Assembly: GCF_044324785.1 (NCBI RefSeq)
Contig: NZ_CP172127.1
Length of the DNA: 64,000 bases
Direction: 5' to 3' (one strand)
Source: Escherichia coli
Lineage (GTDB): Bacteria > Pseudomonadota > Gammaproteobacteria > Enterobacterales > Enterobacteriaceae
Position 1 is the stretch's first letter; the number at the start of each line of letters is the position of its first letter. The notes beneath the pieces are model-generated. The model saw nothing but the letters and a program-made list of their open reading frames with translations, was not told the DNA's origin and did not search any database. Made by a program: the position numbers and the translations under genes. Shown piece after piece: positions 2,725 through 32,753 of the stretch.

Positions 2725-2781
2725 GTACTGTGGTGCGAAATCGCACCGTGATCGCGGATTCGCCGAATCCGCACTGTGGTG
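2725..2781. repeat. Two adjacent perfect hairpins flanked by a 9-bp direct repeat (ACTGTGGTG)
   Basis: GGTGCGAAATCGCACC (2732-2747) and GCGGATTCGCCGAATCCGC (2754-2772); ACTGTGGTG at 2727-2735 and 2773-2781. Confidence 0.5.
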
Positions 2782-3045
2782 TCAACCAACCATACGCGAG
2801 AGTCCTCTCCGTATTTATCAGTGCCTCAGGACGATTTCTGCATAGTTAATCCAGGGGGCTGCATTGTTTATTTCCCTGCTAATGGACGTGACATCCAGGA
2901 TATTCATGATCCTGATTTCCCTGAGCAGTATCAGCGCTTATTGGAGCGTCTGGATTATCAGACGATGCCCGGTACTAAAGCATCAGGCCAGCGTAACTCT
3001 GGCTACAGCGGTTTTTGACCTGTTGTAACTGTAAGGTGATTTATT

Positions 3046-3612: not shown

Positions 3613-3724
3613 CGTCAGGTGATGCATAAGGGCCTTTCGCTGAGAGGCCCTGTTTACACAATTAAATAAATCGAGCCCGACCAACAATTTTGATGTTAAC
3701 AGCAGGATTATTGAGGGGCAATCA

Positions 3725-3830
3725 ATGTGTTCTTCGGTAGCGATTACGGTAGTGAACGGACCTGCTGTCTGAATGGCATCGATCCGCAAGCGTATCGGCG
3801 CCATATTCTGAGCGTACTACTGAAATGGCT
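3725..3830 (+). pseudogene. IS66-family transposase C-terminal remnant
   Basis: Translation FFGSDYGSER..CCLNGIDPQAYRRHILSVLLKW matches the C-terminus of the IS66 transposase at 57024-57383 (FFGSDHGGERGALLYGLIGTCRLNGIDPEAYLRHILSVLPEW) with a frame disruption; approximate bounds. Confidence 0.5.
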
Positions 3831-3957
3831 AATGGCAGTAAAGAGAGACTTTACGTATATTTGCATAAAGCAGGATTTTACGACTAGTCAACATTCTTTA
3901 TAATTCTTCAGGTTCAGAGTATCTGACATATAGGGTTATGTATTGGGGAGACATTTA

Positions 3958-4659
3958 ATGTTTGGCCATCTGTTACGATACTTTAGTTTCTGTAAAAAAG
4001 ATTTATTAGTATTTCATCCTGAATCTGATTACTCAGATAATTTACATAAAGCCTTCTCTTTTACAAAAAGGCTAGGATTTAATGAAGAATGGAATGGGGT
4101 CACAAAAAACAAAGAATATGATTATCAGGATGTATTCAGTCATGTCTGTCTGCAGTCTGGTGTGACAGACTTTTCCGCTTCAGCAGGACAATGCTTAAAG
4201 TGGAGTCATTATTTTCAGCCATATTTTGAGAATATCCTTGAATGTCGGGTATGGGTTACCGTTGGACAACTCTGGAAACAGGAACGATTTATTTACAATC
4301 CGTCAGTTGCGGATTTTCAGCGCTGGTCTGAAAAAGGGATTCAGCCTGAAGATTTTAGACATCACTCGGGGTTTAACTTTCATGCGTGGTTGACGACGGA
4401 AAATGGTGTGATTGTGGATGTTTCCTTTATGAGTACGTTATCGCGGCGATTACCTGAACACCTGAGTGAAGTCAGTGGAAGTGTGATTATTGGCACGCCA
4501 GAGACGGTTCTTCCTGAGTATAAATATGTTCCCATGATTGTCGGTCAGAGGATTGTTGAGAAAATAGAAAAACGCTCTTTCATTGGTTTTCTGGCGCACG
4601 ACGATATTGATTTATATACAGTACCTGCAATCTTGGTTCCGGTATGGAAAGAATGTTAA
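3958..4659 (+). CDS. Hypothetical protein, no recognisable family; orphan cargo gene
   Basis: ORF 3943-4659; likely ATG at 3958 preceded by GGGGAG; AT-rich upstream region; flanked by IS66 and IS21 remnants. Confidence 0.5.
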   Translation: MFGHLLRYFSFCKKDLLVFHPESDYSDNLHKAFSFTKRLGFNEEWNGVTKNKEYDYQDVFSHVCLQSGVTDFSASAGQCLKWSHYFQPYFENILECRVWVTVGQLWKQERFIYNPSVADFQRWSEKGIQPEDFRHHSGFNFHAWLTTENGVIVDVSFMSTLSRRLPEHLSEVSGSVIIGTPETVLPEYKYVPMIVGQRIVEKIEKRSFIGFLAHDDIDLYTVPAILVPVWKEC

Positions 4660-4978
4660 AGCACGGAATAACACTATGCACTTACCGCTTTCCGGAACTC
4701 AGCTTGTTACCTGAGCGGTCAACAGAGCAGTCTTTCAGTGTCTGCACTTGGTTGCCACTAAACCGGAGTCATTTATCAGAAGTATATGTTCATGGAAGGA
4801 TATTGTCAGCGCCAGTGATATAAGACGGTAATGAGGATAGCCACCCCGCATGGGTTTCCTCAACACTGGTCACTGTGACAAGCGCACCATGATCGTCTTT
4901 GTATCGCTGATTGACTTTCGATAATAGAACATCTTCTGACATAAATTTTAGTACGGTAACAATTAACTAAATTTTCAT

Positions 4979-5245
4979 GTGGTAGCACTGAATCAGGAGA
5001 CTGCGTTTCCTGATGTGTGCTTCTGCAGCCGTTACCGGATACAGACTTCGATACCAGTTACTTCGACATCCGCCATGTGTCCTGGGACCCGCTATAACGA
5101 AGTTGGAGGTAATCAGTACAGCGTTCCCGAAATGCTGTGTGGTCAGCCAGTCTCGATACGAATATCGCTGAACGATGAGTTGCGGATCTACAGTAATGAG
5201 AAACTGGTGGCCTCACATCGCCTCTGCTCAGTGTCGTCTGGCTAG
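4979..5245 (+). pseudogene. Possible IS21-family IstA C-terminal fragment
   Basis: Segment YSVPEMLCGQPVSIRISLNDELRIYSNEKLVASHRL resembles IstA C-terminal region; weak, by eye. Confidence 0.3.
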
Positions 5246-5389
5246 CAGATAGTACCGGAACCTCACGCCCCGCTCTGGCAGCAGATCAGTCAGGTGGAAC
5301 ATCGACCACTGAGTGCCTATGAGGAGCTGTTGTGATGCATGTGTCAACGACGGATGAAAGTGGCTCTTCCGCAACCTGGGTGGAGATTT

Positions 5390-6816
5390 TCATGCCAGTG
5401 GACTCATTACCCTCTGCCTGAGTAGTTCAAATCCTGCTCGACCATACATCTGGCGTTTCAGCATCTTCAGGCGATTTACATGACCTTCGACAACACCATT
5501 ACTCCAGTGACTACTGATTGCCTCACATATAGCTGCAGCATCAGCTTCCATCCCCGCCGCCACGCGCCGAAATTCTGCTGAACCGCTTTCGTGGACTCGA
5601 GTGAACCAACTGCTTAGCTGTGATTTATTTTGGGTTTTCAGAATACGGTAGAACTCGAGTGCCAGTTGCTGCGCTATTTTCAGCTCAGGTTCTTTTTCAC
5701 ACATCAGACTAATAAATCGGGAAGCATAATTTTCTTCATCCCTGGTTATTCTCCAGGGCATCAACCAGCGGCTTACCCGGGACACTGAAGGAAGTCTGAC
5801 GGCAGTAGTAACCGGTGGGTTCCAGCCTTTACGCCATTTGGCAACCGCATCCCTGACGATGGTTTCACTGCCTGTAAATCCCCGGGCCACCATTTCCCGC
5901 CATATCCGGCTGGCGTTATAATTACCACTTTCTCGTTGCTCTTTTAACCACTCCCTCCATGGGTCCAGAAGCCCTCGCTTTGGCGGTCGGGTTGACATTT
6001 CAGGGAATGTTCCTGAACGCACCCAGCGACTGACTGTCACACGCGACAGGCCTGTAATACGGGATATTTCCCTGAAACTACATCCCTTGTTATGCAGGGC
6101 CATAACCTCTGTCCAACGCTGATGCCGTTTTTTGCGGGTTTGTTGTTTTAGGCGTTCCGGACGACGGAGCGATGCTGCAGGCACAGATGGTTCTGGATCA
6201 GGTGATTTCTTTGGTGACAACTCACTGGCAACAAGACGTATCAGAGGTATATGTCTATACATCATTCGTTCAGGCGCATCGCCAATATTTTTTAGCAGAT
6301 GCCATCGATCGGCCACCTGTCTGGCCTGAGGTGCACCTTCACGTGCTGCTGTCGCATAGACTCCACTGCGATCACGCGAGACAATCTGTATTTCCGGATA
6401 TTTTCTGAACCAGGTCGCCAGCGTACGCTGATCACGGCCGGGAAGCAGGACGAGGGGACGGTGAGTATCAAGATTGACGATTAACGTACCGTAACGGTGG
6501 CCCCGATGCCACGCCCACTCATCAATACCGACATGAGGCGAGCCTGACTGTTTCGTCTCCGGGGTATTGATAACCCTGCGAAGGAGAGTATCAGCACTGC
6601 AACGGAGACCCACTGCCGTTGCTGCCCGTTTCCCGGCCTCACCTCCGGCGATTAATCCCAGTTGACGTTGTAAATTTTGTAACGCCTGTGAAGACTGTTG
6701 GTGTGAACCGGCGAAGGGAGCAAGCGACTCGGCAAAAATTTTACGTGAACAAGCCGGGTTACGGCAGTACCAGTGGCGGACAGAAAATACAAGCCATAGC
6801 GTATGTCCTGAGCAGG
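5390..6816 (-). pseudogene. ISL3-family transposase, N-terminus interrupted by IS2
   Basis: C-terminal SNGVVEGHVNRLKMLKRQMYGRAGFELLRQRV signature; RHWYCRNPAC zinc knuckle and VGIDEWAWHRGHRYGTLIV DDE region; first 13 codons of track ORF 5390-6853 are encoded by the IS2 right end. Confidence 0.6.
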
Positions 6817-6827
6817 TGGATTTGCCC

Positions 6828-7733
6828 CTATATTTCCAGACACCTGTTATCACTTAACCCATTACTGGCCTGCTGCCGCAGATATTCCCGTGGCGAGCGA
6901 TAACCCAGTGCACTATGCGGATGCCATTCGTTATAATGCTCGAACGCCTCTGCAAGGTTCTTTGCTGCCGTTAACCCGTCTGGTTTAGGCATGATACTGA
7001 TGTAGTCACGCTTTATCGTTTTCACGAAGCTCTCTGCTATGCCGTTACTCTCCGGACTCCGCACCGCCGTGTTCTTCGGTTCAAGCCCCAACATCCGGGC
7101 AAACTGCCGTGTTTCATTAGCCCGGTAGCATGAACCATTATCCGTCAGCCACTCTACTGGAGACGCCGGAAGCTCGTTGCCGAAGCGGCGTTCCACCGCT
7201 CCTGGCATGACGTCCTGTACTGTTTCACTGTCGAAGCCGCCCGTAGTGACTGCCCAGTGCAGTGCCTCACGGTCACAGCAGTCCAGCGCGAACGTGACTC
7301 GCAGTTTTTCTCCGTTATCACAGCGGAACTCGAACCCGTCAGAGCACCATCGTTGATTGCTTTCTTTCACGGCCACTTTGCCAGTATGTGCCCGTTTCGA
7401 TGGCGGTACAGCGGTTTTTCGCTCAAGCAACAGCGCATTCTGGCGCATGATCCGGTAAACACGTTTGGCATTGATCGCAGGCATACCATCAAGTTCGGCC
7501 TGTCTGCGAAGCAGCGCCCATACCCGACGATAACCATACGTGGGCAGCTCTCCGATAACATGGTGTATACGGAGAAGCACATCCGTATCATCTGAGTGAC
7601 GGCTGCGGCGACCATCTTTCCAGTCATCGGTTCGTCTGAGAATTACGTGCAACTGCGCACGCGACACCCGGAGACAACGGCTGACTAAGCTTACTCCCCA
7701 TCCCCGGGCAATAAGGGCGCGTGCGCTATCCAC
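6828..7733 (-). CDS. insD: IS2 transposase OrfB (InsD)
   Basis: 301-aa ORF with rve-type DDE integrase core; recognised as IS2 InsD from memory. Confidence 0.9.
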
Positions 7734-8056
7734 TTTTTTGCACGCCCGTATTCAACGGCTTCTTTAAGGAGTTCATTTTCCATCGTTTTTTTGCCGAGCA
7801 GGCGCTGGAGTTCTTTAATCTGCTTCATGGCAGCAGCAAGTTCAGAGGCAGGAACGACCTGCTCTCCTGCGGCCACAGCAGTAAGACTTCCCTCCTGGTA
7901 TTGCTTGCGCCAGAGAAATAACTGGCTGGCTGCCACACCGTGTTGCCGGGCAACAAGGGAGACCGTCATTCCCGGTTCAAAACTCTGCTGAACAATAGCG
8001 ATCTTTTCCTGTGTAGTACGCCGTCTGCGTTTCTCCGGTCCTAAGACATCAATCAT
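7691..8056 (-). CDS. insC: IS2 OrfA (InsC)
   Basis: Starts [27 protein letters not shown] protein overlapping orfB as in IS2. Confidence 0.85.
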
Positions 8057-8613
8057 CTGCTCTCCAATGACTAGTCTAAAAACTAGTATTAAGACTATCA
8101 CTTATTTAAGTGATATTGGTTGTCTGGAGATTCATGGGGCCAGTCTAATGTGTATCCGGGATGGATGTTTACCAGAACCTTCTCTGTTCCAGTGTGTGGA
8201 GTTTTACAGAAGAGGCGACTGTATGCAACTCTTGCCCCGTAACTGTCTTTATTCGTTTCTCCACACTCTCCGGACATTGTAAATTCCAGATGTGTGGCAG
8301 TGTGTTTTTCGTAAATCGTACACAATGCATTTTTACACGGAGTTCAGCCAGTCGTATCACTGAGAGTTTTTTTCTGATTTGTACCACTCATGCAGCAGTG
8401 ATAAGGAGATATTTTCTCTGTCGGGCCAGCAGGGGCGGTGCCACCTGTTTAGTTTTCTTATGTTTGGTAAAAGAGAGGCTAAAATATATACAACAGGCGT
8501 ATGTAATGATTCATATTGTTAATCATTAACCAGTAAGAATTAATGTAGTGGATCGGTAATTCAGGACACCTCGAAATCCTGTTAATGTTAAAACAGTGAA
8601 AATGGGGTGATGC

Positions 8614-8931
8614 ATGAGCAAAACTCGTCGGACTAAACGCACCTTTTCCCCGGAGTTCAGGCTCGAAGCTATCGAGCAAGTAGTTAAATACCAGCGCGAT
8701 GTCAGAGAAGTCGCGCTGGCACTTGAGCTCAATCCTGACCATTTGCGTAAATGGATACGGTTGTATAAGCTGGAACTTCAGGGTATTGAGCCCGCTGGTA
8801 ATGCCATACCCCTGAACAGCGAGAAATTCAGCAGCTTAAAAGCGCAGATAAAGCGCCTTGAGATGGAAAAAGAAATACTAAAGCAGGCTGCCGTGCTGAT
8901 GAGCGAAATCCCCGGCAAGCTGTCGCGCTAA
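8614..8931 (+). CDS. IS3-family transposase OrfA (HTH plus leucine zipper), element truncated downstream
   Basis: 105-aa ORF MSKTRRTKRTFSPEFRLEAIEQV...LEMEKEILKQAAVLM; only the first codons of an orfB follow before the adjoining IS-like copy at about 9062. Confidence 0.65.
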   Translation: MSKTRRTKRTFSPEFRLEAIEQVVKYQRDVREVALALELNPDHLRKWIRLYKLELQGIEPAGNAIPLNSEKFSSLKAQIKRLEMEKEILKQAAVLMSEIPGKLSR

Positions 8932-9061
8932 TCACACTGCTGAAAGCAAAGCGGCCAGTGCGGATTATTTGTCATTTATTCGGTGTTCACCGTAGCGTTT
9001 ATTACGCGCAGGTGAAGCGTCCTGTTAATGTATCAGCGCCAATGATATAAGACAGTAATTA

Positions 9062-10688
9062 GGATTCGGACGATTTCCTGGACTGCTTTATTATGCCAGC
9101 CCGCATTGTTGGCGGTACATTTCAGGGATGACTGCACCCAGCGAAAATTTTATACGCCGCTCGTTATACCATCTGATGTAAGCATCCACATGCCGCATGA
9201 ATTTTTCAGGCGTGATACCCAATCATTTACGCCCATAATATATTTCAGTTTTCAGTCTGCCGAAAAAGCCTTCGCATGCAGCATTATCAGGCGAGCATCC
9301 TTTACGGGACATTGAGCGAATAAGGCCTGCTGTATTCACTCTTTCCAGCCAGGCCAGCGATAATGCCCACCTCTGTCACTGTGTATCACCGGTCGTTCGC
9401 CAGCATTTAACGTTTCGACAGCGTTATCCAGCATAGTGTTGACCAGTTCAGCATCGGGGCGTGTACTGAGAGACCAGCTCACAACTTTTCTGTCGAAGCA
9501 GTCCACCACCGGTGATAGCCAGACTTTTCCTGCAGGAAGCTGGAACTCCGTGATATCTGTCAGCCATTTCTGATTAGGTTGCTCCGCCTTAAAATCTCTG
9601 GCGATAAGGTTATCCGGAGAAGGTCCGATTTCTCCGCAATATGAGCTGTAGCGGCGATGACGGTTACGGCTGACGACAAGCTGTTCCTCCACCATAAGTC
9701 TGCGTACAACCTTTTCTGATAGCCGATCCCCCTCATGCCTGAGCATCGCATGCAGGCGACGATAGCCATAACACTGGTAATTACTGTTAAATATATCTGT
9801 CAGCATCGTACGTATCGTGGCGTATTTATCACTGGCTTTCAGTGCAGCCCGGTGATAAAAATAACTGCTACGGGCAAGGCCCAGAACATGCAGTAATTCT
9901 GTCAGGGGATATGTTTATCTCAGGGCATCAGTAATCTTTGTTTTTTCTCTGTTGTTCAGGTGACTGATGCTGATGCCCGGGTCTTTTTTTATTATTTCCT
10001 CCGCTTTTTTCAGAATATCCAGTTCCATCTGCCGGCGGCGTATTTCCTGATTCAGTCGGGCGACTTCCTCCCGCAACGCATCGCGTTCTGCCTCCAGGGA
10101 AGGGGCGTTATGTTTACGCATAGTCTGGTAAGCACTGTTGCCGATAATTTCATCTTTCCATTTATACAATACCGCGCGACTGACACCAATACGCCTGGCG
10201 ATTTCACTGGCTGATCCTTGTCGTGTACAGAGTACCATGACAGCCTGACGTTTGACTTCTGGTTCAAAGGACGCAACCGGATTGGTCTTACTGGTAAATA
10301 CACGTCGTCTGTCGGGGGAACGTTCATTAACCCAGCGAGCGAGCATATCGGTACAGGGATAACCCAGAGTCCTGCTGGTAAACGCCAGGCAGCAGCCGTG
10401 GTTAAGATAATGTTCAACGGCAACCTGTTTTTGCTCATCGGAGTAACGGTGCTTATGACGAATGGATTCTTTTGATCCGCCACCTGCTTCCCATGAACGG
10501 ATCCAACGCCGCAGATTTCTTTTCGAAGGGTAGCCCAGTTCGCGTACGACGGGGCCAGCTTCTTACCATATTTGAAATAAAGCTCAATGGTGCGAATTTT
10601 TTGTTCTTCAGTAAACATGTTTCATCTCCTGAGAGTCCAGGAAATCGTCCGCATCCCCTAACGGTCAAAAATCGTGGCGTTGATACAG
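9062..10688 (-). mobile_element. DDE (rve) IS-like element, copy 1, decayed; about 50-bp terminal inverted repeats
   Basis: Left end TGTATCAACGCCACGATTTTTGACCG (reverse complement at 10688); right IR lacks about 35 terminal bp; transposase carries a 1-bp frameshift after MFTEEQKIRTIELYFKYGKKLA, a TAA where copy 2 has CAA (Gln), and further shifts near the 3' end. Confidence 0.65.
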
Positions 10689-10868
10689 GGGAAATCCGTA
10701 GTTTTTGATGCCAGCCATAACGTGTTTGACTATAAAGTATTACGAAAGGACTTTAATGAGCCCCTGGAATAATTCATTAAAGTAATTTACTTCGCTATCC
10801 TTTTCCCAGTTACTCACAAAGAAAAATATTCATAAAATAATTCCCGGGCTGGCAGCCCGGGATGATTA

Positions 10869-12131
10869 CTATTTTAATGGATTGTTAATCTTTGCATATT
10901 CAAACGGGCTGATACATTGTTCTCTGTTCGCACCCAGAAAATCTGCCCACCACTGTAGCATCAGTCGACGTTCTTCCAGATGTTCTGCTTTATGGATATA
11001 TGCAGCACGTACACCATTACGCTCCTGATGGCTCATCTGACGTTCCACAGCATCGCGGGACCACAAACCTGATTCAATCAATGCACTGCACGCCATCGCC
11101 CGGAATCCATGACCACAGACTTCCTGGGTTGTGTCATATCCCATCACCCTCAGGGCTTTATTTACAGTATTTTCACTGATCGGTTTACGCGGGTCATGTG
11201 CTCCCGTAAAGATCAGACCATTTTCACCAGCCCATGTCTGTAGTTCTGTCAGTATGGCTACAGCCTGTTTGCTGAGTGGCACAAGATGTGGTGTTCGCAT
11301 CTTGGAGCCCCGGTGTGAGTATTTTACGCCTGGCAGAGGTTCGCGTTCGGCTGGAATAGTCCACATGGCATTGTCAATATCAATTTCAGACCAGCGGGAA
11401 TATCTGAGTTCACTGGAACGAATAAAAACCAGTAAATTCAGCATAACTGCCAGTCGGGTGACAGGCTGACCTTTATAACCGTCAATACGCGACAGAAGTT
11501 CAGGCAGGCGTGAAAGATCCAGAGCAGGGCGATGCTGGCGTTTTACCGTGGTCAATGCACCAGCCATATCCAGAGCCGGGTTATATCTGATGATGCCAGA
11601 CTGTACGGCATAACGCATTACAGCAGATATTCTTTGCTGCAGACGACTGGCGATTTCATAAATTTGTTTTGCTTCTGCAGCACGAACAGGGATAAGCAGG
11701 TCCGGGGTATTGAGTGTTGTGATATCCCGGTTGCCGATAAAGGGGAAAACGTGTGTCTCGAGGCTTTTGATTACTTTATCGCTGTGTGATTGTGCCCATT
11801 GTTTATTACTGGCATGCCAGCGTCGTGCAATATGTTCAAAAGAGAGTTGTAAATCAGGGACTACTTTTTTAGCTCTTTTTTGTTCGCAAGGGTCAATCCC
11901 CTCTGAAATCAGTTTTCGGGCCTCATCCCGTTTTGTACGAGCTTCGGAGAGAGAAACTTCTGGATATACACCAAGTGCCAGAGTCTTCTCCTTACCCAGA
12001 ATACGATAACGGAGACGCCAGTAACGGGAACCATTAGGATGAACCAGCAGGAACATGCCAGCCCCGTCAGTGAGTTTATAAGCCTTGTCAGTGTGCTTTG
12101 CAGCCCGGATTTTTGCGTCAGTCAGTGCCAT
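10869..12131 (-). CDS. P4-type tyrosine integrase (CP4-like island integrase)
   Basis: 420-aa ORF; N-terminal LTDAKIRAAK..GMFLLVHPNGSRYWRLRYR arm-binding domain and C-terminal catalytic region (HGFRAM...RAAY). Confidence 0.9.
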   Translation of the reverse strand: MALTDAKIRAAKHTDKAYKLTDGAGMFLLVHPNGSRYWRLRYRILGKEKTLALGVYPEVSLSEARTKRDEARKLISEGIDPCEQKRAKKVVPDLQLSFEHIARRWHASNKQWAQSHSDKVIKSLETHVFPFIGNRDITTLNTPDLLIPVRAAEAKQIYEIASRLQQRISAVMRYAVQSGIIRYNPALDMAGALTTVKRQHRPALDLSRLPELLSRIDGYKGQPVTRLAVMLNLLVFIRSSELRYSRWSEIDIDNAMWTIPAEREPLPGVKYSHRGSKMRTPHLVPLSKQAVAILTELQTWAGENGLIFTGAHDPRKPISENTVNKALRVMGYDTTQEVCGHGFRAMACSALIESGLWSRDAVERQMSHQERNGVRAAYIHKAEHLEERRLMLQWWADFLGANREQCISPFEYAKINNPLK

Positions 12132-12295
12132 AGTTCAGCCTTCTGAATGCGTTAAAGAGGGTACAAATTCTGTCGAACTGGGGTATACCCGCAATTATAC
12201 CCACACAATGGGGTTGATGTGGGGGGAATCTGGTTGAGTTCGGTAGAATTGATTTGGAGGCAGAACGCTTAAATTGTGGCGTTCTGAAACGAAAA

Positions 12296-12317
12296 ACGGA
12301 CCTCCGTGGAGGTCCGT
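12296..12317 (-). terminator. Rho-independent terminator hairpin downstream of the tRNA-Phe 3'-end copy
   Basis: Perfect palindrome ACGGACCTCCGTGGAGGTCCGT followed on the minus strand by TTTTCGTTTC. Confidence 0.5.
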
Positions 12318-12328
12318 TGATATGAATT

Positions 12329-12347
12329 TGGTGCCCGGACTCGGAAT
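12329..12347 (-). repeat. Copy of tRNA-Phe 3' end (att core) without tRNA body
   Basis: Minus-strand ATTCCGAGTCCGGGCACCA equals the last 19 nt of E. coli tRNA-Phe; upstream sequence does not match the tRNA body. Confidence 0.65.
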
Positions 12348-12594
12348 GAAACTGGTTGTATAACAAGTTGTTTTATATTGATTGTTTTGTGTTTGTTATT
12401 TTTGAGGCCACCAATGAGGCCCCCATGTGCAATTCGAATTCTTTTGACGCTATAATCCCTCTTTCTTGTGGTTTGTTGTAATCATTTTGTCTGGTTCGAT
12501 ATGCTGAATCGCGGAATCGAAGTGACAACAAAATACAGAGATTTATAAAATACCTGGCTACCTGTGTTAGGGAGCGTTAACGCACAGATTTTGT

Positions 12595-12921
12595 TTATGG
12601 CTGCCAGAAATGATCTGATGGTTTGTCGTCTGGCTCTGCAAGTACCCTGTTGATATCCCGGGAACCATGAACGATACGTTCGATACGAACTTCAGTATCC
12701 AGTACCCTGAACAGCAGAAGGTAACGACCATACGAACAACCTCTGATCCCAGCCCCTAACTCGGGTCTTTCTCTGTAGAGTACTGGCGATTCGGCTATCA
12801 ACAGACATTGTTGGTAAAGCTCTTCGGTAAAACTGATTGCACGGACAGGATTATCCTGAGCGATCCAGTCACCTATAGCTTCAAGATCGTGTTCTGCTAA
12901 TGGTGAAACAGTCAGTTTCAT
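12595..12921 (-). CDS. parE: ParE-family type II toxin
   Basis: 108-aa ORF; ParE/RelE-like sequence; overlaps upstream antitoxin by ATGA. Confidence 0.75.
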   Translation of the reverse strand: MKLTVSPLAEHDLEAIGDWIAQDNPVRAISFTEELYQQCLLIAESPVLYRERPELGAGIRGCSYGRYLLLFRVLDTEVRIERIVHGSRDINRVLAEPDDKPSDHFWQP

Positions 12922-13181
12922 ATTGGCTGTTCACCTTCTGCCATCTTTTTGTATTTGTGCGTCAGTCGCCCGAATACCTCTTCAGCACTTTTACTTTCAC
13001 CGCTGTTGATGCCTGCGGTCACGGCGCTCTGGAGTGATTCAAGCTTTATCTGCTGTTCCCGTTCTTCCAGAGCACGAAGTCCGGCACGAATGACTTCACT
13101 TGTATTGTTGTACCGACCACTTTCTATTTGTTCGCGGATAAACGTTTCAAAGTAAGGACTGAGGGATACACTGGTAGGCAT
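12918..13181 (-). CDS. parD: ParD-family (RHH) antitoxin
   Basis: 87-aa ORF; RHH-type segment NTSEVIRAGLRALEEREQQ; overlapping stop/start with parE. Confidence 0.75.
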   Translation of the reverse strand: MPTSVSLSPYFETFIREQIESGRYNNTSEVIRAGLRALEEREQQIKLESLQSAVTAGINSGESKSAEEVFGRLTHKYKKMAEGEQPI

Positions 13182-13252
13182 GGTTATTTTCTCGCCGATT
13201 GATCACTATCAATTAATAATAGTTAATATTCGTGAATTGTAAAATACCTCTT

Positions 13253-14122
13253 TTATGCCTTGCTGCTTTTGTTCACTGTGCTTGCCAGGGCTTCCGGGTA
13301 GTGTCTGGCAATAATATCATTAAGCCTGTCAACCAGCTCTGGTTTCCTGAACGTGATGTGCGCGGAGCCCTTCTTAAAGTATCTGATGCTGAACATCTCA
13401 TCTTCATAGTCCTCTTTACCCTGAACAGACTGGATGTGATCATCCAGATGAATGGTGATGTTTTCCCGGTTGTCGGGGATCGGTTTGCCGCTGAACAGGT
13501 GTAGCATTCTTTCCAGATCGGCAAGTCGATCTGCCTGTGGGCCGTTGTTCAGATGAAACCCCCACCGGTCCCACCTCACCAGGTTGTTGACGATAATTTT
13601 ACTGCCAAATTTGCAGGGGCAATTGGTTTTGTAATTCCAGCTCAGTCCCCTGAAGACGTTGATCACCCCTCGCTCAAACACCTCATCCTTATTCTGGTGC
13701 AGTTGTTCAAATGTGCTCAGAATGTTCGCTTCGCAGATTTCCGGAAAATTATCGTACTCCAGTGACCGGTACCATGTATCACGGGCTTGTGCATCCATTA
13801 ATGACAGCATCCCTGAACGTTGCATCAGGTCACGCCAGAGTTCGCGATCGAGATTCCGGGTGATGGCTTTCATTGCGGTTTCCGGTTTCTCCATCAGCCA
13901 GCAACCGCAGCGAAAATCCTGTTTCATGGCCCAGTCCCGGGCGGTTTTACCTCCAATACTTTCTGTCATTGCTGATATTTCAGCCAGTTGCCGGATAAGT
14001 GTGTCGATTTGCAGCAGTGTACTCTTTCGTACAGCCAGAATGTGGCGGATACTGGTTGAGCAAATAACGTCCGTATGCCCGGTGACCACTTCCGGACGGG
14101 AGGCTGTGATATCTGACATCAT
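13253..14122 (-). CDS. Hypothetical protein (DUF4942-like, as often found next to cbtA/cbeA)
   Basis: 289-aa ORF; family name recalled from context, not verified. Confidence 0.4.
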   Translation of the reverse strand: MMSDITASRPEVVTGHTDVICSTSIRHILAVRKSTLLQIDTLIRQLAEISAMTESIGGKTARDWAMKQDFRCGCWLMEKPETAMKAITRNLDRELWRDLMQRSGMLSLMDAQARDTWYRSLEYDNFPEICEANILSTFEQLHQNKDEVFERGVINVFRGLSWNYKTNCPCKFGSKIIVNNLVRWDRWGFHLNNGPQADRLADLERMLHLFSGKPIPDNRENITIHLDDHIQSVQGKEDYEDEMFSIRYFKKGSAHITFRKPELVDRLNDIIARHYPEALASTVNKSSKA

Positions 14123-25668: not shown

Positions 25669-26400
25669 ATGAATCAACCAATACACAATGATTACTGGTT
25701 ATCCCGTTTTGAAAGTATTCTCAACAGTGCCCTGGTGCAACACCGTGCCGTCTCGTTAATCCGGGTGGATTTACGTTTCCCTGAGCATATGCCTGTCACC
25801 ATCATGGATCCCGATCCGGATTCAGCGGTGATTTCTCGTTTTTTCGAATCCCTGAAAGCCAAAATTCAGGCTTACCAGCGGAAAAAACGACGTACCAACA
25901 AGCGTGTGCGTGCAACCACCCTGCATTATTTCTGGTGTCGGGAGTTTGGCAAGGAAAAAGGCAGGAAACATTATCACGTGATATTACTGCTCAACAAAGA
26001 TACCTGGTGCTCGCCAGGGGATTTCACCGTTCCTTCTTCGCTGGCGACGCTGATCCAACTGGCATGGTGTAGCGCTCTGCATCTTGAGCCCTGGCAGGGT
26101 AATGGACTGGTTCATTTTTCCAGGCGGACGCCTTTCCGTAAACCGGCATCATCTGATGCTCGCCCTTCTTCCGATGATACGCCTTTGTCGGGTGGATGTT
26201 CTGAAACCAGGAAGGCTTCAGACAAAAAGCCGGGTGAAGCCGCTGTTCTCTGGATCAAGCGTGGTGATGTGGAAGCGATGCAGAAAGCCATGGAGAGAGC
26301 CCGTTATCTCGTGAAGTATGAGACGAAGCAGCATGACGGTTCTGGTCAACGTAATTATGGTTGCAGCCGTGGAGCGGGGCGTCTACTGGATGGCAGGTGA
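25669..26400 (+). CDS. Gp2/YagK-like family paralog (HYHV motif)
   Basis: 243-aa ORF; RKHYHVILLLNKDTWCSPGD; ACGGAGAT upstream of ATG. Confidence 0.5.
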   Translation: MNQPIHNDYWLSRFESILNSALVQHRAVSLIRVDLRFPEHMPVTIMDPDPDSAVISRFFESLKAKIQAYQRKKRRTNKRVRATTLHYFWCREFGKEKGRKHYHVILLLNKDTWCSPGDFTVPSSLATLIQLAWCSALHLEPWQGNGLVHFSRRTPFRKPASSDARPSSDDTPLSGGCSETRKASDKKPGEAAVLWIKRGDVEAMQKAMERARYLVKYETKQHDGSGQRNYGCSRGAGRLLDGR

Positions 26401-26726
26401 ACCCTGTAAAAAGGCATCCGGTGCCAGAGTATATGTCACAGTAAGGGCGTGGTTGACGCCCTTAGCTCGTTTTCTGAAAAAGTCGTCCTGAAGTCATGCA
26501 ATGTTTCCTGGTTTTCATGCATCCATCATTTGTCGCTGCGATGCCAGACTTCTGGATGCACACATGTTGTTTTACTTTTGTCAGCATCATAAATGCGCCG
26601 GGACTGGTGAATGGAGATAAGCCATTTTATTATCGACGTCAGCGAACATACTCACCATGCCGGTATGTTCCTGAACTGAACAATAAGTTTTGCGCTGATT
26701 ACAGTATGTGAAGGAGGTCCGTTACA

Positions 26727-28331
26727 ATGAATTCCGCTTATATGCAATCCTTGCAGACATCCCACCACTTCCCAGCTGATTTAACCTACAGATTATTTCC
26801 TAGTGAGCTTGCATATCTCATTGACGACTTATATGAAAGTACCCAACTTCCGCTGGAGCTCATTTTTAATACTGTACTGGCAACGCTCTCACTCTCCTGT
26901 CAGTCACTGGTTGACGTTGTTCATCCTCACACCAACATGCCGGAACCCTGCTCACTTTATCTGTTGGCAATCGCAGAGCCAGGCGCGGGAAAAACAACGA
27001 TAAACAGACTGGTGATGAACCCCTGTTACGAATTTGCCGATCGACTCATTCAACAATACGAAGAGAGAAACAAAGATTATAAGACTGAACTACAGATCTG
27101 GAATACCCGGCAGAAAGCGCTTGCTGCCAATTTAAGAAAGGCTGTTAACCGGGGGTATCCGGGGGAACAGGAAGAAGAGGCGCTGCGTAATCACGAAAGA
27201 AATAAACCGACACGTCCGGTTCGACCGAATTTTATCTATGAAGATGTTTCGCTTAAAGCGCTTGTGGAAGGGCTCAATGAACATCCTGAGGCAGGGGTTA
27301 TTTCTGACGAGGCGGTCACTTTTTTCAGAAGCTATCTGAAAAATTATCCGGGCCTGTTGAATAAAGCATGGAGTGGACAACCGTTTGATTTTGGACGGGC
27401 TGACGAGAAATACCATATCACGCCACGTCTGACATTTTCGTTAATGTCCCAGCCGGATGTCTTTACGAATTATATAAATAAAAATGACGTACTGGCGTGG
27501 GGAAGCGGATTTCTTTCCCGGTTTCTGTTCAGTCAGACCGGAAGTCCTTCCCGGGTACGGGATTATACGAGAGGCGAGTTCAGAACAAAACCAACCCTGG
27601 AGAAGTTTCATAAAAAGATTAACGGATTTCTGTTAAGCCATAACATTAATTCCCCCGGTATGAGCACCGAAAGGAAAACATTAAAACTTGCAAAGAAAGC
27701 GTTGGGGGAGTGGCAGGAAAACCAGATTAAGATTGAAAGAAAAGCGCTTGCAGGAGGGGAGTGGGAACACATCAGAGATATTGTTCTGAAAGCAGGTTCT
27801 AATATACTGAGGATAGCTGGAATATTCACCTGCTATTGCTATAAAGATGCTGAGGAAATTGAATCAATTGCGCTTTTTAAAGCTATGCATCTCATGGACT
27901 GGTATCTGGAGGAGGCGAGCACAATATTTTATCCCATGTCTGCACGATGCCAGTTTGAACAGGATGCCTGTGAACTGTATGCATGGATTATGACCCGAAT
28001 AAGGCAGAATAATTGGCGTGCTATCAGGAAAACAGACATTGAAAGATATGGTCCCAATCGTCTGAGAAGAGCAGAAAAACTTACACCTGTACTCAATCAG
28101 TTAATCGCTCAAAATTATTTCCGTATCATCAAGATGCGATCGCATCAGGCACTTTATGTTTCTGCTCTTGATAATAATGGTTACATCCTTCCTTTCGGCG
28201 CAATGTCTTACGAACCGTTTGATATTGTTCCACCCCAGTATAACCATAATGCGAAAACATATTCCGTTGTTATTCCACCGGCATTAATTCAGTCATTTAC
28301 ACCTGATTCCTCAGCTTACACCTTATTTTAA
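26727..28331 (+). CDS. YfjI-like P-loop protein (DUF3987-like), putative NTPase
   Basis: 534-aa ORF; Walker A AEPGAGKTT; strong SD GAAGGAGG. Confidence 0.6.
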   Translation: MNSAYMQSLQTSHHFPADLTYRLFPSELAYLIDDLYESTQLPLELIFNTVLATLSLSCQSLVDVVHPHTNMPEPCSLYLLAIAEPGAGKTTINRLVMNPCYEFADRLIQQYEERNKDYKTELQIWNTRQKALAANLRKAVNRGYPGEQEEEALRNHERNKPTRPVRPNFIYEDVSLKALVEGLNEHPEAGVISDEAVTFFRSYLKNYPGLLNKAWSGQPFDFGRADEKYHITPRLTFSLMSQPDVFTNYINKNDVLAWGSGFLSRFLFSQTGSPSRVRDYTRGEFRTKPTLEKFHKKINGFLLSHNINSPGMSTERKTLKLAKKALGEWQENQIKIERKALAGGEWEHIRDIVLKAGSNILRIAGIFTCYCYKDAEEIESIALFKAMHLMDWYLEEASTIFYPMSARCQFEQDACELYAWIMTRIRQNNWRAIRKTDIERYGPNRLRRAEKLTPVLNQLIAQNYFRIIKMRSHQALYVSALDNNGYILPFGAMSYEPFDIVPPQYNHNAKTYSVVIPPALIQSFTPDSSAYTLF

Positions 28332-28930
28332 AACAATTTTGTGAGTAGAAAACGAAAATCATAATCCTTCGAATGAAGGTTGATGATAAGGTGTGTTGCA
28401 TATCCTGCACCTGTGCAAATATTCACCAATTATTGGGTGTGAATGAAAATTTCTCTGAAAAAATCGCTATGGTAGCAACAGTAGCAGCACATACACTACA
28501 TCTGTGATTTGGTTTTGTTTTCATAATGACCTGCTGTCAGAGCTGATTGAATGCTGGGATGTGCGCACTGGTGGAAGAGTGGTTTTCGTTTCAGATATAA
28601 CGAAAGGCAATCGAAAGATTGTTTTAAACATGGATTAAAGCTAATCATTAACCATATTGTGTGAGTTTTTATATATAAGTTTGTTTGATTCTTGCCGTGA
28701 TGAGTGCTGGGGTATATGACGATGTCGCTCTCTTTCTGAATAACAAATTATTATTCGTCTGTTACTGATAAGGGATGCGATTCATGTTTTAATAGATGGT
28801 TGAAGAAAATTAATTTGATATTTTTTTTGTAAGGGAATGGAACTGTCCGGAATATGTTCAGAACGGCGGATTTCTCATTTCCATTCATTAAACATGGATA
28901 ATTTTAATTTAGGTTTATTACTATTATTAT

Positions 28931-29047
28931 ACTCACTCCCTTTTTGATATAATCTCTATTGTTATTTACTTCCTGTCTTTACTCACTCCCTTTTTCATAC
29001 AATCTCTATTGTTATTTACTTCCTGTCTTTACTCACTCTCTATCTTT
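28931..29047. repeat. Tandem 50-bp direct repeat: two copies plus a partial third
   Basis: 28931-28980 and 28981-29030 differ at 2 positions; partial third copy ACTCACTCTCTATCTTT. Confidence 0.7.
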
Positions 29048-29920
29048 ACGATTATATTCACTCTATCGTTACACATTCCATTAGTATTACTCTTGTTATC
29101 GTATTCATTCCATCCCTCAATCATATTTACTGTAACTCATATGATGTTCAGGTAAGTTATTCTCTACCATTCTACTGATGATATTCATCTGTTCTCATTT
29201 TCACTGAAACAGCAATTAATTTTAATCTTATCCATCATGAGCTGTATTTTCTTAACAATGGTTGTTTATCTGAAGTGTTTTAACTATTCTGATGAACATC
29301 AATTCTTTTGTCATTACTGATTAACCGAATGTTTACTTTTTGATAAGGTATCCATGATTCTGTAACGATTAACAGAGCTGGATAAACAATGGAATTGACA
29401 GGAGAGATTCCTGATTATGTTTGTTCTGGGTTGTATTATCTAAGATGCAGGATGAAAATCATGTCAGTGGTATTTTTTATTCTGCTATCGTGAGCCGTGA
29501 ATGTTCATGTCCTTAAGAACAGATTGAATGAGCGCATATAAGTTTATTGCATTGGCCTTGTACACAGTTTTTACAACCACTGAGAGCAAGTTTGTAGTTT
29601 ATGATGTGATTGGTCGCAATATGTTTCTTAACCTTCTGGACGTGGTGTTTTATCGCGTATTTACAGTATTTCGTGATGTTTTATTGAGTCTGTATTTTCT
29701 TTACTCCTCGTTTATCTCATCTCTTTAGCTAATACCATCAGATAATCCATTTCTTTCTGCATAATGCTGCGTATCGTTAATAACCCGTCGTATCCATTCT
29801 GCTACAGCATGCCTGATAAATACCATCTGTAAGTTATTACCGTTTTAGATCTGATTATGAGCGAAAGCATTAATTCGTTCACAGAGCTTAAAACATCATT
29901 AACTTTCAGGAGTCATCAAC

Positions 29921-30487
29921 ATGCCTAAATCTTACACACCAAACTGGTTTTTTACCGCTTTACTTGACAATCACATCAATCAAATGATGGCACGCTATTC
30001 CTGCCTGCGGGCCTTACGGATGGATTTCTTCTACAGGAAAGATACGCCTGATTTCTTACAACCTGATCATCGCTGGCTTGAATTGCAGTTGCGTATGCTG
30101 CTGGAGCAGGTGGAACAATTTGAAAATATCGTTGGTTTCTTCTGGGTGATTGAATGGACGGCTGATCATGGTTTTCATGCGCATGTGGTTTTCTGGATCG
30201 ATCGTCAGAGGGTTAAAAAAATATATCCCTTTGCGGAGCGGATAGCGGAATGCTGGCGGTCTATTACGCATAACAGCGGTTCGGCACACCGCTGTACATA
30301 TCAGCCGCATTATACATACAACATCAACATTCCTGTGCGCCACAACGATCCTGAAAGCATCGATAATATTCGCGGTGCCCTGCATTATCTGGCAAAAGAA
30401 GAGCAAAAAGACGGGCTGTGTGCCTACGGCTGCAATGAAGTTCCTGAACGTCCTGCTGCAGGGCGTCCTCGTAAGCCTCACTTCTGA
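29921..30487 (+). CDS. YagK/YfjJ-family protein (inovirus Gp2-like)
   Basis: 188-aa ORF; HGFHAHVVFWIDRQ H-x-H motif; paralog of ORF at 798. Confidence 0.65.
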   Translation: MPKSYTPNWFFTALLDNHINQMMARYSCLRALRMDFFYRKDTPDFLQPDHRWLELQLRMLLEQVEQFENIVGFFWVIEWTADHGFHAHVVFWIDRQRVKKIYPFAERIAECWRSITHNSGSAHRCTYQPHYTYNINIPVRHNDPESIDNIRGALHYLAKEEQKDGLCAYGCNEVPERPAAGRPRKPHF

Positions 30488-31305: not shown

Positions 31306-31373
31306 AAGCAGCATTCCATCCCATACCTCGTATTACCCCATTCTTCATCAATCTCACAGAGGATATTCTGACC

Positions 31374-31607
31374 ATGTTGACCACAATAAGCCACGACAGC
31401 GTGTTGCTGCGTGCCGACGATCCCCTGATCGACATGAACTACATCACCAGTTTCACCGGCATGACCGATAAATGGTTTTACAGGCTGATCAGTGAAGGTC
31501 ATTTCCCTAAACCCATCAAACTGGGGCGCAGCAGCCGCTGGTACAAAAGTGAAGTGGAGCAGTGGATGCAGCAGCGAATTGAGGAATCACGAGGAGCAGC
31601 AGCATGA
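31374..31607 (+). CDS. alpA: AlpA-family transcriptional regulator / excisionase-like HTH protein
   Basis: Internal start of track ORF 31293-31607; MTDKWFYRLISEGHFPKPIKLGRSSRWYKSEVEQWMQQR matches the AlpA pattern. Confidence 0.7.
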   Translation: MLTTISHDSVLLRADDPLIDMNYITSFTGMTDKWFYRLISEGHFPKPIKLGRSSRWYKSEVEQWMQQRIEESRGAAA

Positions 31608-32450: not shown

Positions 32451-32753
32451 TCAACGAGGTTTTCTGTCTTTTCGTCGGTCATTCAGCATCATTAAACGGG
32501 TCTCTGCCTCTTTCTGTTCCTGTGGTGTCACTTCCCCGCACGGCTGACCGTTCAGGTTGTAACGGGCGCCACCTGCTATTAACGCACGGTAATAGCGCGG
32601 AGACTGCACATAAGACGCCACTGCTGCATGTAATGTACCAGCGCCAAACGCCAGTTCTCGGATGGCGATATCCTGTATCAGGTCGTCAGGTATCCCCACT
32701 TTAAGTGGTTTTGTTTTTTTCCCGGTTGAATGACTCAGGCCAGAGTTCCACAA
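32451..32753 (-). CDS. Hypothetical protein
   Basis: 100-aa ORF; no family recognised; may be one frame-disrupted gene with 32768-32962. Confidence 0.3.
   Translation of the reverse strand: MWNSGLSHSTGKKTKPLKVGIPDDLIQDIAIRELAFGAGTLHAAVASYVQSPRYYRALIAGGARYNLNGQPCGEVTPQEQKEAETRLMMLNDRRKDRKPR

Follow-up and report, generated by a model that had tools for sequence, protein, structure and literature searches.

An island-borne yfjI gene of Escherichia coli for a putative helicase, and the AT-rich, promoter-like upstream region of the neighbouring Gp2-type operon

The yfjI-family gene studied here belongs to an E. coli CP4-57-type genomic island and lies in a 64,000-nucleotide stretch of contig NZ_CP172127.1 (assembly GCF_044324785.1), the whole of which we refer to as the window. 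Alongside it are the island genes alpA, YagK/YfjJ, GTPase, antirestriction, RadC and CbtA/CbeA, and the local order is Gp2, yfjI, a gap, Gp2-type and then alpA-like (Table 1). DNA matching this locus is seen in 1661 of 5426 complete genomes, and in many E. coli genomes 99.9% identical DNA with the same ORF coordinates is annotated as the RefSeq 'YfjI family protein' WP_001083417.1. Directly upstream of yfjI, the 243-aa HUH-type protein is recognized by the Pfam models PF11726 (E 1.8e-36) and PF23343 (E 4.4e-9), and its translation contains the motifs HYHVILLL and YLVKY. A PF11726 gene adjoins yfjI or its homologue in four genera (E. coli, Pluralibacter, Klebsiella and Yersinia), and we regard the 243-aa protein as a probable partner of the YfjI helicase. 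On the far side of the gap, the downstream operon comprises a Gp2-type HUH gene, a hypothetical gene, an AlpA-like regulator and another hypothetical gene. The 188-aa Gp2-type protein matches PF23343 and PF11726 below their cutoffs; it contains HAH at residues 86-88 and Y156xxK159, with H86, H88, Y156 and K159 being invariant in 23 homologues. The 78-aa AlpA-like protein falls in the PHROG 'excisionase and transcriptional regulator'. A ProQ/FinO-domain gene, frameshifted in several genomes, is situated 2.5 kb downstream of the gap.

Table 1. Features of the yfjI locus, numbered from the first nucleotide of the window.
Feature	Position	Strand	Basis
YagK/YfjJ ('inovirus Gp2 family') HUH-type protein, 243 aa, directly 5' of yfjI	25669-26400	+	Pfam
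Ribosome-binding site AAGGAGGT, ending 8 nt short of the yfjI ATG	26711-26718	+	direct reading
yfjI-family gene, 534-aa DUF3987 protein (stand-alone MCM-like AAA+ helicase type)	26727-28331	+	ORF list
Walker A codons, AEPGAGKTT, residues 83-91	26973-26999	+	translation; G86/K89 conservation
Walker B codons, D194 E195	27306-27311	+	conservation
C-terminal helix/beta-hairpin domain, about residues 406-481, winged-helix-like	27942-28169	+	
yfjI 3' flank, AT-rich, no conserved ORF, RNA family or repeat array	28332-28800	.	alignment, divergence, Rfam
Weak terminator candidate, short GC-containing hairpin CCTTCGAATGAAGG, 35 nt past the yfjI stop	28366-28379	.	terminator-like scan
Conserved 26-bp element TTAATTTAGGTTTATTACTATTATTA, consensus TTAATTTnGGTTwwTTAmTATwATTA	28904-28929	+	cross-genus comparison
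-10-like hexamer inside the 26-bp element	28922-28927	+	TATTAT in window
CACTCCCTTTTT, conserved few nt past the -10-like hexamer; putative transcript start	28934-28945	+	CACTCC(C)T recurrence
50-bp tandem duplication, 2.2 copies, strain-specific	28930-29038	+	TRF score 204, 96% matches
Hypervariable pyrimidine-rich tract, C 24-30%, G 4-6%	28930-29130	+	composition, alignment
Middle of the expanded upstream region, near-neutral rate with indels	29131-29682	+	divergence
Constrained proximal 240 bp, including ribosome-binding site AGGAG at 29908-29912	29683-29920	+	divergence, column identity
'Inovirus-type Gp2' HUH protein, 188 aa, first operon gene	29921-30487	+	RefSeq name
AlpA-like HTH/excisionase-family gene, 78 aa, same operon	31371-31607	+	PF05930 E 2.4e-10

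The initial annotation described the yfjI product as a P-loop protein with a Walker A motif in its N-terminal third and a strong Shine-Dalgarno sequence before its gene. All of this is borne out, the Walker A motif lying within the first sixth of the protein and an NTPase fold of the AAA+ type being recognizable. YfjI matches nearly the entire Pfam DUF3987 model (PF13148) with 251.6 bits (E 1.7e-74, profile positions 1-362 of 364; gathering cutoff 27 bits) and displays the motifs expected of the family, GxGK[ST] for Walker A and hhhhDE for Walker B; in a family alignment of 48 sequences G86, K89, D194 and E195 are each at least 90% conserved. The closest likeness of its ATPase fold is to MCM, which places it in superfamily 6. 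DUF3987 has been described as a family within SF6 that is related to MCM and whose members, putative replicative helicases, bear a C-terminal wHTH (PMC4889955). The Walker A and B motifs of the family have also been described, and a distant member, the PriCT-DUF3987 protein AgaPH, needs both of them for its 5'-3' helicase activity (PMC11724360). YfjI is of a known MCM-like DNA helicase type, here on an E. coli genomic island. By analogy with its family it is a putative hexameric DNA helicase.

The same searches separate the two halves of the earlier proposal that YfjI might be a primase or helicase relative. The helicase half stands, with the DUF3987 domain and a match to the PHROG 'DNA helicase' (E 5.6e-43); the primase half does not, as Pfam finds DUF3987 alone and no Toprim/DnaG, AEP/Prim-Pol or PriCT domain. 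Matches to the PHROG 'DNA primase' span residues 229-462, which is the helicase part, and Toprim or Prim-Pol domains are confined to distant homologues of 630-880 aa (P0115, P0117). A sequence search of the PDB detects no relative of solved structure. In the E. coli comparison the dN/dS of yfjI is 0.5-0.57, a value that indicates weak constraint, and hence this copy of the gene may be decaying.

The gap between yfjI and the Gp2-type gene (28332-29920) is 1589 bp long and has a GC content of 0.339 as against 0.473 for the window, of which it is the lowest-GC 1.5-kb stretch. It was originally noted as AT-rich DNA lacking a convincing ORF, and this is correct: its longest ORF has 66 aa, compared with a shuffle expectation of 69 +/- 17. 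Every ORF of at least 20 aa was checked, and indels or stops break all of them in homologous loci; the minus-strand 33-aa ORF at 29725-29826, for example, carries a TAG in two of these (L003 and L007). No RefSeq feature or PGAP pseudogene covers the tract among the matches listed, of 1572 matching genomes. Six-frame fragments were searched by tblastn for a decayed pseudogene; neither the related loci nor the remainder of the window yielded a match below E 0.01. No Rfam family or tRNA reaches its gathering score anywhere in the 64-kb window, and within the tract there are only two sub-threshold matches at chance level, to a Bacteroides sRNA and a snoRNA model. A phage or plasmid source was considered and rejected: none of 50,697 phage records matches the tract, and the E. 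coli plasmids that do number 12, the examined example (H76) carrying an IS66-truncated fragment that adjoins ireA.

These results also bear on whether annotation has missed a small RNA or small protein in the tract, such as an RNA partner of the island ProQ/FinO-domain protein. The downstream position of the gene for that protein would suit such a role, as would the sigma-70-like matches of the tract, which number three and lie without exception on the minus strand. Against it stand the empty Rfam search, the absence in the tract scan of any terminator-like site paired with these three matches, the lack of excess folding stability, the failure of any ORF to be preserved across loci and the frameshifts in the ProQ gene itself. 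We regard an RNA or small-protein product as highly improbable.

Comparison of related loci divides the tract into two parts, one from 28332 to about 28800 that goes with yfjI, and another from about 28800 to 29920 that goes with the downstream operon. The first part aligns in yfjI-bearing loci only (L001, L003 and L006). Relative to L003 its divergence is 0.135-0.228, against a dS of 0.075 for yfjI, and the slightly longer interval 28332-28900 likewise outpaces the synonymous sites of the gene. The hairpin CCTTCGAATGAAGG near the yfjI stop was flagged by the terminator-like scan on the minus strand, and its tail on the plus strand is not T-rich. Judged from these alignments, 28332 to about 28800 is an unconstrained 3' flank that travels only with yfjI.

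It is against this background that the suggestion of a replication region has to be judged, whereby the tract or its yfjI-side half would be the island origin, melted and loaded by YfjI in the manner of SaPI/PICI elements, in which the origin is 3' of the primase-helicase gene. The tract is AT-rich as an iteron origin would be, but repeat arrays flanking the AT-rich segment are lacking. No iteron arrays were detected near yfjI, nor in the DNA that separates the Gp2 and yfjI genes or precedes them; there are only scattered two-copy repeats of 10-14 nt with irregular spacing, and locus L003, which is 79% identical, does not share them. Nor is the tract conserved and linked to a cognate helicase gene, as expected of such origins: the yfjI-side half diverges faster than yfjI synonymous sites, and the conserved half segregates with the downstream operon and is kept where yfjI is absent. 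Moreover, the yfjI homologues of Pluralibacter, Klebsiella and Yersinia have no comparable AT-rich tract and are followed by alpA after about 340-430 bp. An origin of this kind is thus very unlikely, and the proposal of a replication region was not upheld.

The second part of the tract has a different distribution. From about 28800 or 28903 to 29920 it is kept in loci without yfjI, beside dsdA, a sugar kinase gene, IS remnants or a DUF6530 gene. In other species yfjI is absent from all 31 Gp2-type loci, and 29 of these 31 have an AlpA-family gene in the same orientation no more than 1.6 kb from the Gp2-type gene. By this synteny the DNA from about 28800 to 29920 is the upstream region of the Gp2-type operon and not of yfjI. 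A site-specific recombination junction at 28903 was tried as a candidate and rejected; the left ends of homology vary by locus (28800, 28872, 28877, 28886 and 28903).

The most widely conserved feature of this region is the 26-bp element, which occurs once in the window. Among the Gp2-type genes examined with enough upstream sequence, it is present once per locus, 5' of the gene and on its strand, the exception being one locus with a partial match (L050). The genera covered number at least 15 and include Klebsiella, Citrobacter, Serratia, Salmonella, Kluyvera, Mixta, Buttiauxella, Photorhabdus, Yersinia, Erwinia and Budvicia. The loci that share it include some with Gp2-type protein identities down to 35-58% and with unalignable surrounding DNA. 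Its divergence is 0.029 as against 0.10-0.13 at 4-fold sites. The distance from element to gene is usually 140-330 nt in other genera versus about 1 kb here. In some genomes (H66, H68 and H69) the element is missing and what remains of the region is its proximal 256-790 bp. Nearly every locus reads TATAAT or TATTAT at the -10-like hexamer, most genera having TATAAT, and CACTCC(C)T recurs at the same offset after it in most genera. No -35 match is present at a spacing of 16-18 bp, and because of this the consensus promoter scan missed the element. The conserved block instead fills the spacer/-35 position, and for these reasons we infer that the element is a factor-dependent, regulated promoter of putative activity.

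Composition changes at the same point. The C/G ratio is 0.4-0.7 upstream of the element and 4-8 at 28970-29129, and downstream of the element in loci of other genera it is 1.5-5 in 16 of 17 cases. The hypervariable pyrimidine-rich tract that follows the element shows column identities of 0.20-0.40, with length and repeats varying by locus; L004, for instance, has a different, CCACCTTCT repeat. As RNA it is essentially unstructured (MFE -21 kcal/mol per 300 nt, z 0.15). The interval 28970-29129 thus has the long, C-rich, G-poor and weakly structured character of rut-type sequences, and if it is transcribed as predicted, the C-rich leader is likely to be a loading site for Rho. The same tract contains the one array behind the earlier mention of tandem repeats, 50 bp in 2.2 copies; no further arrays were found. 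Its copies are 96% identical, the other eight aligned loci hold a single copy, so that the duplication is strain-specific, and the best full-length genome matches are 49-50 bp shorter than the query. It is a recent duplication within the pyrimidine-rich tract. A translational lock, in which the 5' CACUCCC would pair with the ribosome-binding site, was also considered and rejected, being predicted in only a minority of 21 putative leaders.

Further downstream, the middle region (29131-29682) diverges at 0.125-0.184, compared with 0.096-0.134 at 4-fold degenerate sites of adjacent genes, and the putative leader holds one terminator-like site, weak and non-conserved, at 29399-29413. The 1-kb leader may not be a single transcription unit, a second promoter nearer the gene being possible. 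The last 240 bp before the Gp2-type gene are constrained, with a divergence of 0.055 (about half the neutral rate) and column identities of 0.90-0.98; the folding z-score of these 240 nt is -1.59, which is not significant for a stable RNA structure, and variation in them is too low for covariation. Over about 1.2 of the 1.6 kb of the whole tract divergence is neutral or faster, with many indels, the exceptions being 28904-28929 and 29683-29920. By this measure the tract is mostly unconstrained spacer. The earlier notion of a regulatory region is supported in part, for the next operon and not for yfjI, given the 26-bp element and the constrained 240 bp.

Two other readings of the conserved part deserve consideration. 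According to the first, everything beyond a short ordinary promoter is AT-biased, decayed filler of acquired DNA, possibly H-NS-silenced and kept by linkage. The divergence and indels just described agree with this, as do the hypervariable repeats, a count of promoter-like sites below that of shuffled sequence and the 140-330 bp with which more distant relatives manage; however, it leaves unexplained both the cross-genus conservation of the 26-bp element and the consistently C-rich, G-poor composition after it in sequences that cannot be aligned, and no trace of a former coding sequence is seen. As a complete explanation filler seems doubtful, and it is largely compatible with, rather than opposed to, the account that we favour.

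The second reading takes the element as the nick site, or double-strand origin, of the Gp2-type HUH endonuclease, with rolling-circle replication or transfer starting from 28904-28929, and the data on the element are compatible with it too. The protein has the invariant HUH and YxxK motifs, its relatives are called rolling-circle replication proteins in some sources, and in all genera the AT-rich element occurs once, a short way 5' of the gene and in its orientation. A single AT-rich, co-oriented upstream site is typical of rolling-circle rep genes. In one clade the element even lies in the loop of a GGGAGTG...CACTCCC inverted repeat, in which one variant (L026) is apparently compensatory. A universal hairpin had to be rejected, however, since the E. 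coli lineage lacks the flanking repeat, as do at least three further clades (window fold z-score 0.26). Also against a nick site, the core that is conserved best reads as a canonical TATAAT and is placed as in a promoter, and the strand-asymmetric, C-rich composition begins exactly at the element, which suggests transcription. We consider a nick site unlikely.

Our preferred account, which we hold to be moderately probable, is that the flagged interval joins two separate things that are adjacent by chance, an island helicase gene and the expanded upstream region of the next operon, with the element as a regulated promoter. YfjI and the upstream HUH (YagK/YfjJ) protein would probably replicate the island after its excision. 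The AT-rich tract would be no accessory of yfjI. Its last ~1 kb would start at the 26-bp element, which is conserved ahead of this gene family across Enterobacterales and, with its TATAAT-like -10 hexamer, would act as a factor-dependent promoter, and the C-rich, G-poor, unstructured sequence after it would be a transcribed leader and a likely Rho loading site. In the E. coli lineage this leader appears to have grown from about 0.2 kb to about 1 kb through the hypervariable pyrimidine-rich tract and neutrally drifting DNA. AlpA could conceivably be the factor that acts at the element.

A bolder and, in our view, improbable extension makes the element and the C-rich leader together the control point of a widespread class of enterobacterial islands that carry defence and virulence genes. 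In one version the element is an AlpA antitermination loading site, where the linked AlpA-family protein would render RNA polymerase termination-resistant and so switch on the HUH gene; in the other it is a nick site, where the HUH protein would start rolling-circle replication of the excised island, with YfjI as the helicase where it is carried. Were either version true, the CP4-57-type 'cryptic prophages' would gain a defined and testable mechanism of activation or replication.

YfjI-type genes sit in islands of a large share of E. coli genomes, with virulence, metabolic and anti-phage cargo. The pairing of an MCM-like YfjI with an HUH protein supports the idea that 'cryptic' islands replicate after excision, as SCCmec, SaPI and PICMI do, which would affect how these islands spread. 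For the AT-rich tract the results are mostly negative, in that it contains no demonstrable origin and the majority of it drifts neutrally. The only new, testable item at the locus is the promoter-like element conserved across genera before the Gp2-type/AlpA module, which offers a handle for studying how such islands switch on.

Among known systems, YfjI of the E. coli K-12 cryptic prophage CP4-57 belongs to the same family and has the same island context; its gene order, which we take to be alpA-yfjI-yfjJ, differs from that in the window. AgaPH, from a Seonamhaeicola mobile element, resembles YfjI in its DUF3987 domain, Walker A/B motifs and small C-terminal domain; it is an oligomer that unwinds DNA 5'-3' at the expense of ATP, and it has been proposed to replicate its own element (PMC11724360). 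In contrast to AgaPH, YfjI has neither a PriCT domain nor an adjoining AEP primase-polymerase, its neighbour being an HUH protein. The archaeal and eukaryotic MCM helicases share only 10-15% identity with YfjI and give global TM-scores of 0.3-0.39, indicating that the overall domain arrangement differs. The proteins of staphylococcal islands, namely the MCM-like SCCmec Cch (5dgk) and the SaPI5 primase-helicase (7ola), are further from YfjI than MCM. SaPI proteins contain a primase domain and have a defined iteron origin next to them, neither of which was found at the YfjI locus. The PICMI satellites of Vibrionaceae share with the present island an integrase, AlpA and a DUF3987-type replication gene. 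The SatelliteFinder model detects their prim gene through the HMMs of DUF3987 and DUF5906. The satellites need prim to replicate, and replication drops when it is deleted; alpA triggers their activation (PMC10803314). PICMIs are tiny, with six genes, and integrate beside fis, whereas the island here spans tens of kb on a CP4-type backbone, is without a known helper phage and has no detected primase domain.

For the element itself, the nearest parallel to a promoter is in Pseudomonas aeruginosa, where AlpA acts as an antiterminator and has its loading site between -35 and -10 (PMC7969949). At the AlpA-dependent promoters of alpB and PA0807 a conserved protein-binding block occupies that interval and a terminator-containing leader follows; the position of the conserved block and the linked AlpA-family gene would fit such an arrangement here. 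The site sequences are unrelated (GGGACGN5GGTA there, TTAATTTnGGTTwwTTA here), and unlike those promoters the present locus has no convincing predicted intrinsic terminator. The other parallel is with filamentous-phage gpII and rolling-circle rep-dso modules, from which the locus differs in lacking a conserved hairpin at the E. coli site and phage structural genes, and with which it shares the HUH and Tyr motifs, a match to the G2P Pfam family and, as at the gpII plus-strand origin, a single conserved AT-rich site upstream of the gene.

The region 26400-30000 lies in the E. coli chromosome and has 99.9%-identical counterparts in many complete genomes. There yfjI carries the annotation 'YfjI family protein' (WP_001083417.1) and sits between genes annotated as 'inovirus Gp2 family protein' and 'inovirus-type Gp2 protein'. 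This neighborhood is a CP4-57-type island backbone. The 534-aa ORF and its Walker A motif (AEPGAGKTT, residues 83-91) were confirmed, as was its strong Shine-Dalgarno sequence, with the ribosome-binding site AAGGAGGT located 8 nt before the ATG. The initial annotation had proposed a primase or helicase relative. The helicase part of this proposal holds, as YfjI is recovered as DUF3987 in Pfam (251.6 bits) and as 'DNA helicase' in PHROGs (E 5.6e-43); the primase part does not, since Pfam, PHROGs and homolog comparisons reveal no primase domain in YfjI itself, with Toprim and Prim-Pol domains being confined to distant, longer homologs. A PDB sequence search with YfjI recovered no relative. An AlphaFold model based on a family alignment of 48 sequences is confident (pLDDT 86.4, pTM 0.85), and G86/K89 of Walker A and D194/E195 of Walker B are conserved throughout that alignment. 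These results agree with the literature on DUF3987, which has been assigned to superfamily 6 as an MCM-related family that has a winged helix at the C-terminus and comprises putative replicative helicases (PMC4889955); a PriCT-DUF3987 protein is a Walker-dependent 5'-3' helicase (PMC11724360), and the 'prim' gene of PICMI satellites, found by their detection model via DUF3987 and DUF5906 HMMs, is needed for efficient replication (PMC10803314). Close relatives of YfjI (40-57% identity) occur throughout Enterobacterales, and in E. coli, Pluralibacter, Klebsiella and Yersinia the gene always adjoins alpA and a PF11726 YagK/YfjJ gene, whose product displays HUH-type motifs. The dN/dS of 0.5-0.57 among E. 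coli alleles points to weak constraint on yfjI.

Features of the two islands and of the non-coding tract
Feature	Position	Strand	Remark
Inovirus-type Gp2 gene, more distant	798-1397		Second island, left end; without the 26-bp element
DUF7828 and zinc-ribbon genes	1763-2574		Second island, left end
Another YagK/YfjJ gene	3046-3612		Second island, left end
ISL3 and IS3 copies	within 1-13300		Second island, left end
Tyrosine integrase	10869-12131	-	Second island, left end
DUF4942, CbtA/CbeA, RadC/JAB, antirestriction, DUF932 and GTPase genes			Left-side island backbone
Hypothetical protein, 289 aa	21994-22863	-	
YagK/YfjJ gene, 243 aa	25669-26400	+	Upstream of yfjI
yfjI	26727-28331	+	
Non-coding tract	28332-29920		
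26-bp element	28904-28929	+	
Pyrimidine-rich tract	28930-29130		
50-bp repeat array	28930-29038		2.2 copies
Gp2-type gene, 188 aa	29921-30487	+	
AlpA-like gene	31371-31607	+	Right side of island
ProQ/FinO-domain gene	32451-32753	-	Right side; border of backbone and cargo

Parts of a second island, including an Hha/YmoA gene, lie within 1-13300 at the left end of the window, and in the closest matching genome a ParDE-type toxin-antitoxin pair is annotated next to its integrase. The 289-aa protein has at its C-terminus a weak match to NF010256, the model for the plasmid 'replication regulatory protein RepA' (E 7.5e-5, far short of the cutoff). Several genomes that are otherwise nearly identical carry a frameshift in the ProQ/FinO-domain gene. 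In other genera (L016-L019, L021-L049) the Gp2-type gene is the final backbone gene, followed by variable, defence-rich cargo, such as type I restriction-modification systems and OLD/AAA_15 ATPases; cargo of the E. coli relatives includes dnd/dpt phosphorothioation systems.

The gap following yfjI is indeed AT-rich (1589 bp, 33.9% GC; no other 1.5-kb stretch of the window is as GC-poor) and devoid of convincing ORFs, the longest (66 aa) being as expected from shuffled sequence and none being preserved across nine aligned loci. The tandem repeats attributed to it are real, and amount to a single array representing one of the changes in length and repeat content that the pyrimidine-rich tract has undergone in every lineage; the unit is single-copy in all other aligned loci. 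Matching DNA is present in 1572 of 5426 complete E. coli genomes, with no annotated feature beneath it among the matches listed. Sigma-70 consensus matches in 28200-30000 number three, all on the minus strand, versus 8.3 +/- 2.3 in shuffles, a scarcity unexpected given the AT-richness.

In the nine-locus alignment, 28332 to ~28800 is alignable only in loci with yfjI, while sequence from 28800-28903 onward is kept upstream of the Gp2-type gene even without yfjI, the DNA further upstream then being dsdA, a sugar kinase gene, IS remnants or a DUF6530 gene. The alignment thus indicates a composite of a yfjI-linked and a Gp2-type-linked part. A single recombination junction was ruled out because the left ends of homology vary among loci. 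Against a 79%-identical counterpart, the yfjI-proximal part shows 0.135-0.228 differences per site (yfjI dS 0.075). Judged against 4-fold degenerate sites of adjacent genes (0.096-0.134), 29128-29682 evolves neutrally (0.125-0.184); divergence is lower in 29683-29920, the final 240 bp (0.055), and lowest at 28903-28929 (0.029). The replication region suggested by the initial annotation, read as an origin served by YfjI, is supported by nothing more than AT-richness and adjacency, and we consider it very improbable: the tract contains no iterons, the sequence beside yfjI lacks constraint, the conserved part is unlinked to yfjI, and no comparable tract follows yfjI in other genera.

Sensitive blastn searches of the tract against loci of other genera yielded one small match (28900-28947), defining a 26-bp element, TTAATTTnGGTTwwTTAmTATwATTA, which occurs once in the window. 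We studied 31 loci encoding Gp2-type relatives, one genome per species, and four more obtained via individual proteins. Wherever a locus extends far enough upstream, the element occurs once, co-oriented, ahead of the Gp2-type gene (only partially in L050); it is conserved in at least 15 enterobacterial genera (window; L016-L049): Klebsiella, Citrobacter, Atlantibacter, Kluyvera, Serratia, Salmonella, Mixta, Buttiauxella, Enterobacter, Enterobacillus, Photorhabdus, Cedecea, Budvicia, Yersinia and Erwinia. Across these the Gp2-type proteins are only 35-58% identical and the DNA around the element is unalignable; its distance to the gene is usually 140-330 nt, and ~1000 nt in the E. coli lineage. 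None of the 31 loci has yfjI, and 29 have a co-oriented AlpA-family gene within 1.6 kb, up- or downstream of the Gp2-type gene. The first ~390 bp of the conserved upstream region, including the element, also occur on E. coli plasmids, mostly conjugative (NZ_CP075655.1 and seven similar ones); in the one examined, NZ_CP075655.1, truncation by an IS66-family element and proximity to ireA make the copy look like a transposed island fragment.

Nearly all loci have TATAAT or TATTAT at positions 19-24 of the element, and CACTCC(C)T lies a few nucleotides beyond. No -35 hexamer was found, a conserved block filling that space, and a consensus scan called no promoter at the element. Starting at the element, the plus strand is C-rich and G-poor (C/G 4-8 at 28970-29129 versus 0.4-0.7 upstream), as it is in 16 of 17 unalignable sequences that follow the element in other genera (C/G 1.5-5), and the pyrimidine-rich tract is predicted to be almost unstructured as RNA. 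The simplest reading of these sequence features would make the element the promoter from which the Gp2-type operon is transcribed, with a regulator site embedded in it, and the C-rich sequence a transcribed leader of a type that Rho loads onto. The main rival, a nick site of the HUH protein, draws on an inverted repeat, GGGAGTG...CACTCCC, followed by a T-run, that places the element in its loop in one clade (L024, L025, L027-L030, L033, L042, L043, L049), one arm lying ~11 nt ahead of the element and the other 5 nt past it; at the same place L026 has GAGTAA...TTACTC, apparently a compensatory pair. This repeat is, however, missing from the E. coli lineage and several other clades.

Overall, yfjI is an ordinary island helicase gene, correctly recognized, beside a mostly neutral spacer; none of the protein, its family or the island type is new. 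We found no annotation of the 26-bp element, and no description of it or of the long upstream region in the open-access papers searched; it is a modest, testable cis-element that emerged as a by-product of this analysis. Related Pseudomonas islands with an integrase, AlpA, a Gp2-like protein and RadC were recently reported as phage-transduced elements. Under the promoter reading, a candidate for the regulator that would act at the element is the linked AlpA-family protein, by analogy to P. aeruginosa AlpA, which suppresses termination after loading onto RNA polymerase at a site between -35 and -10 (PMC7969949), although that site is unrelated in sequence to the 26-bp element.
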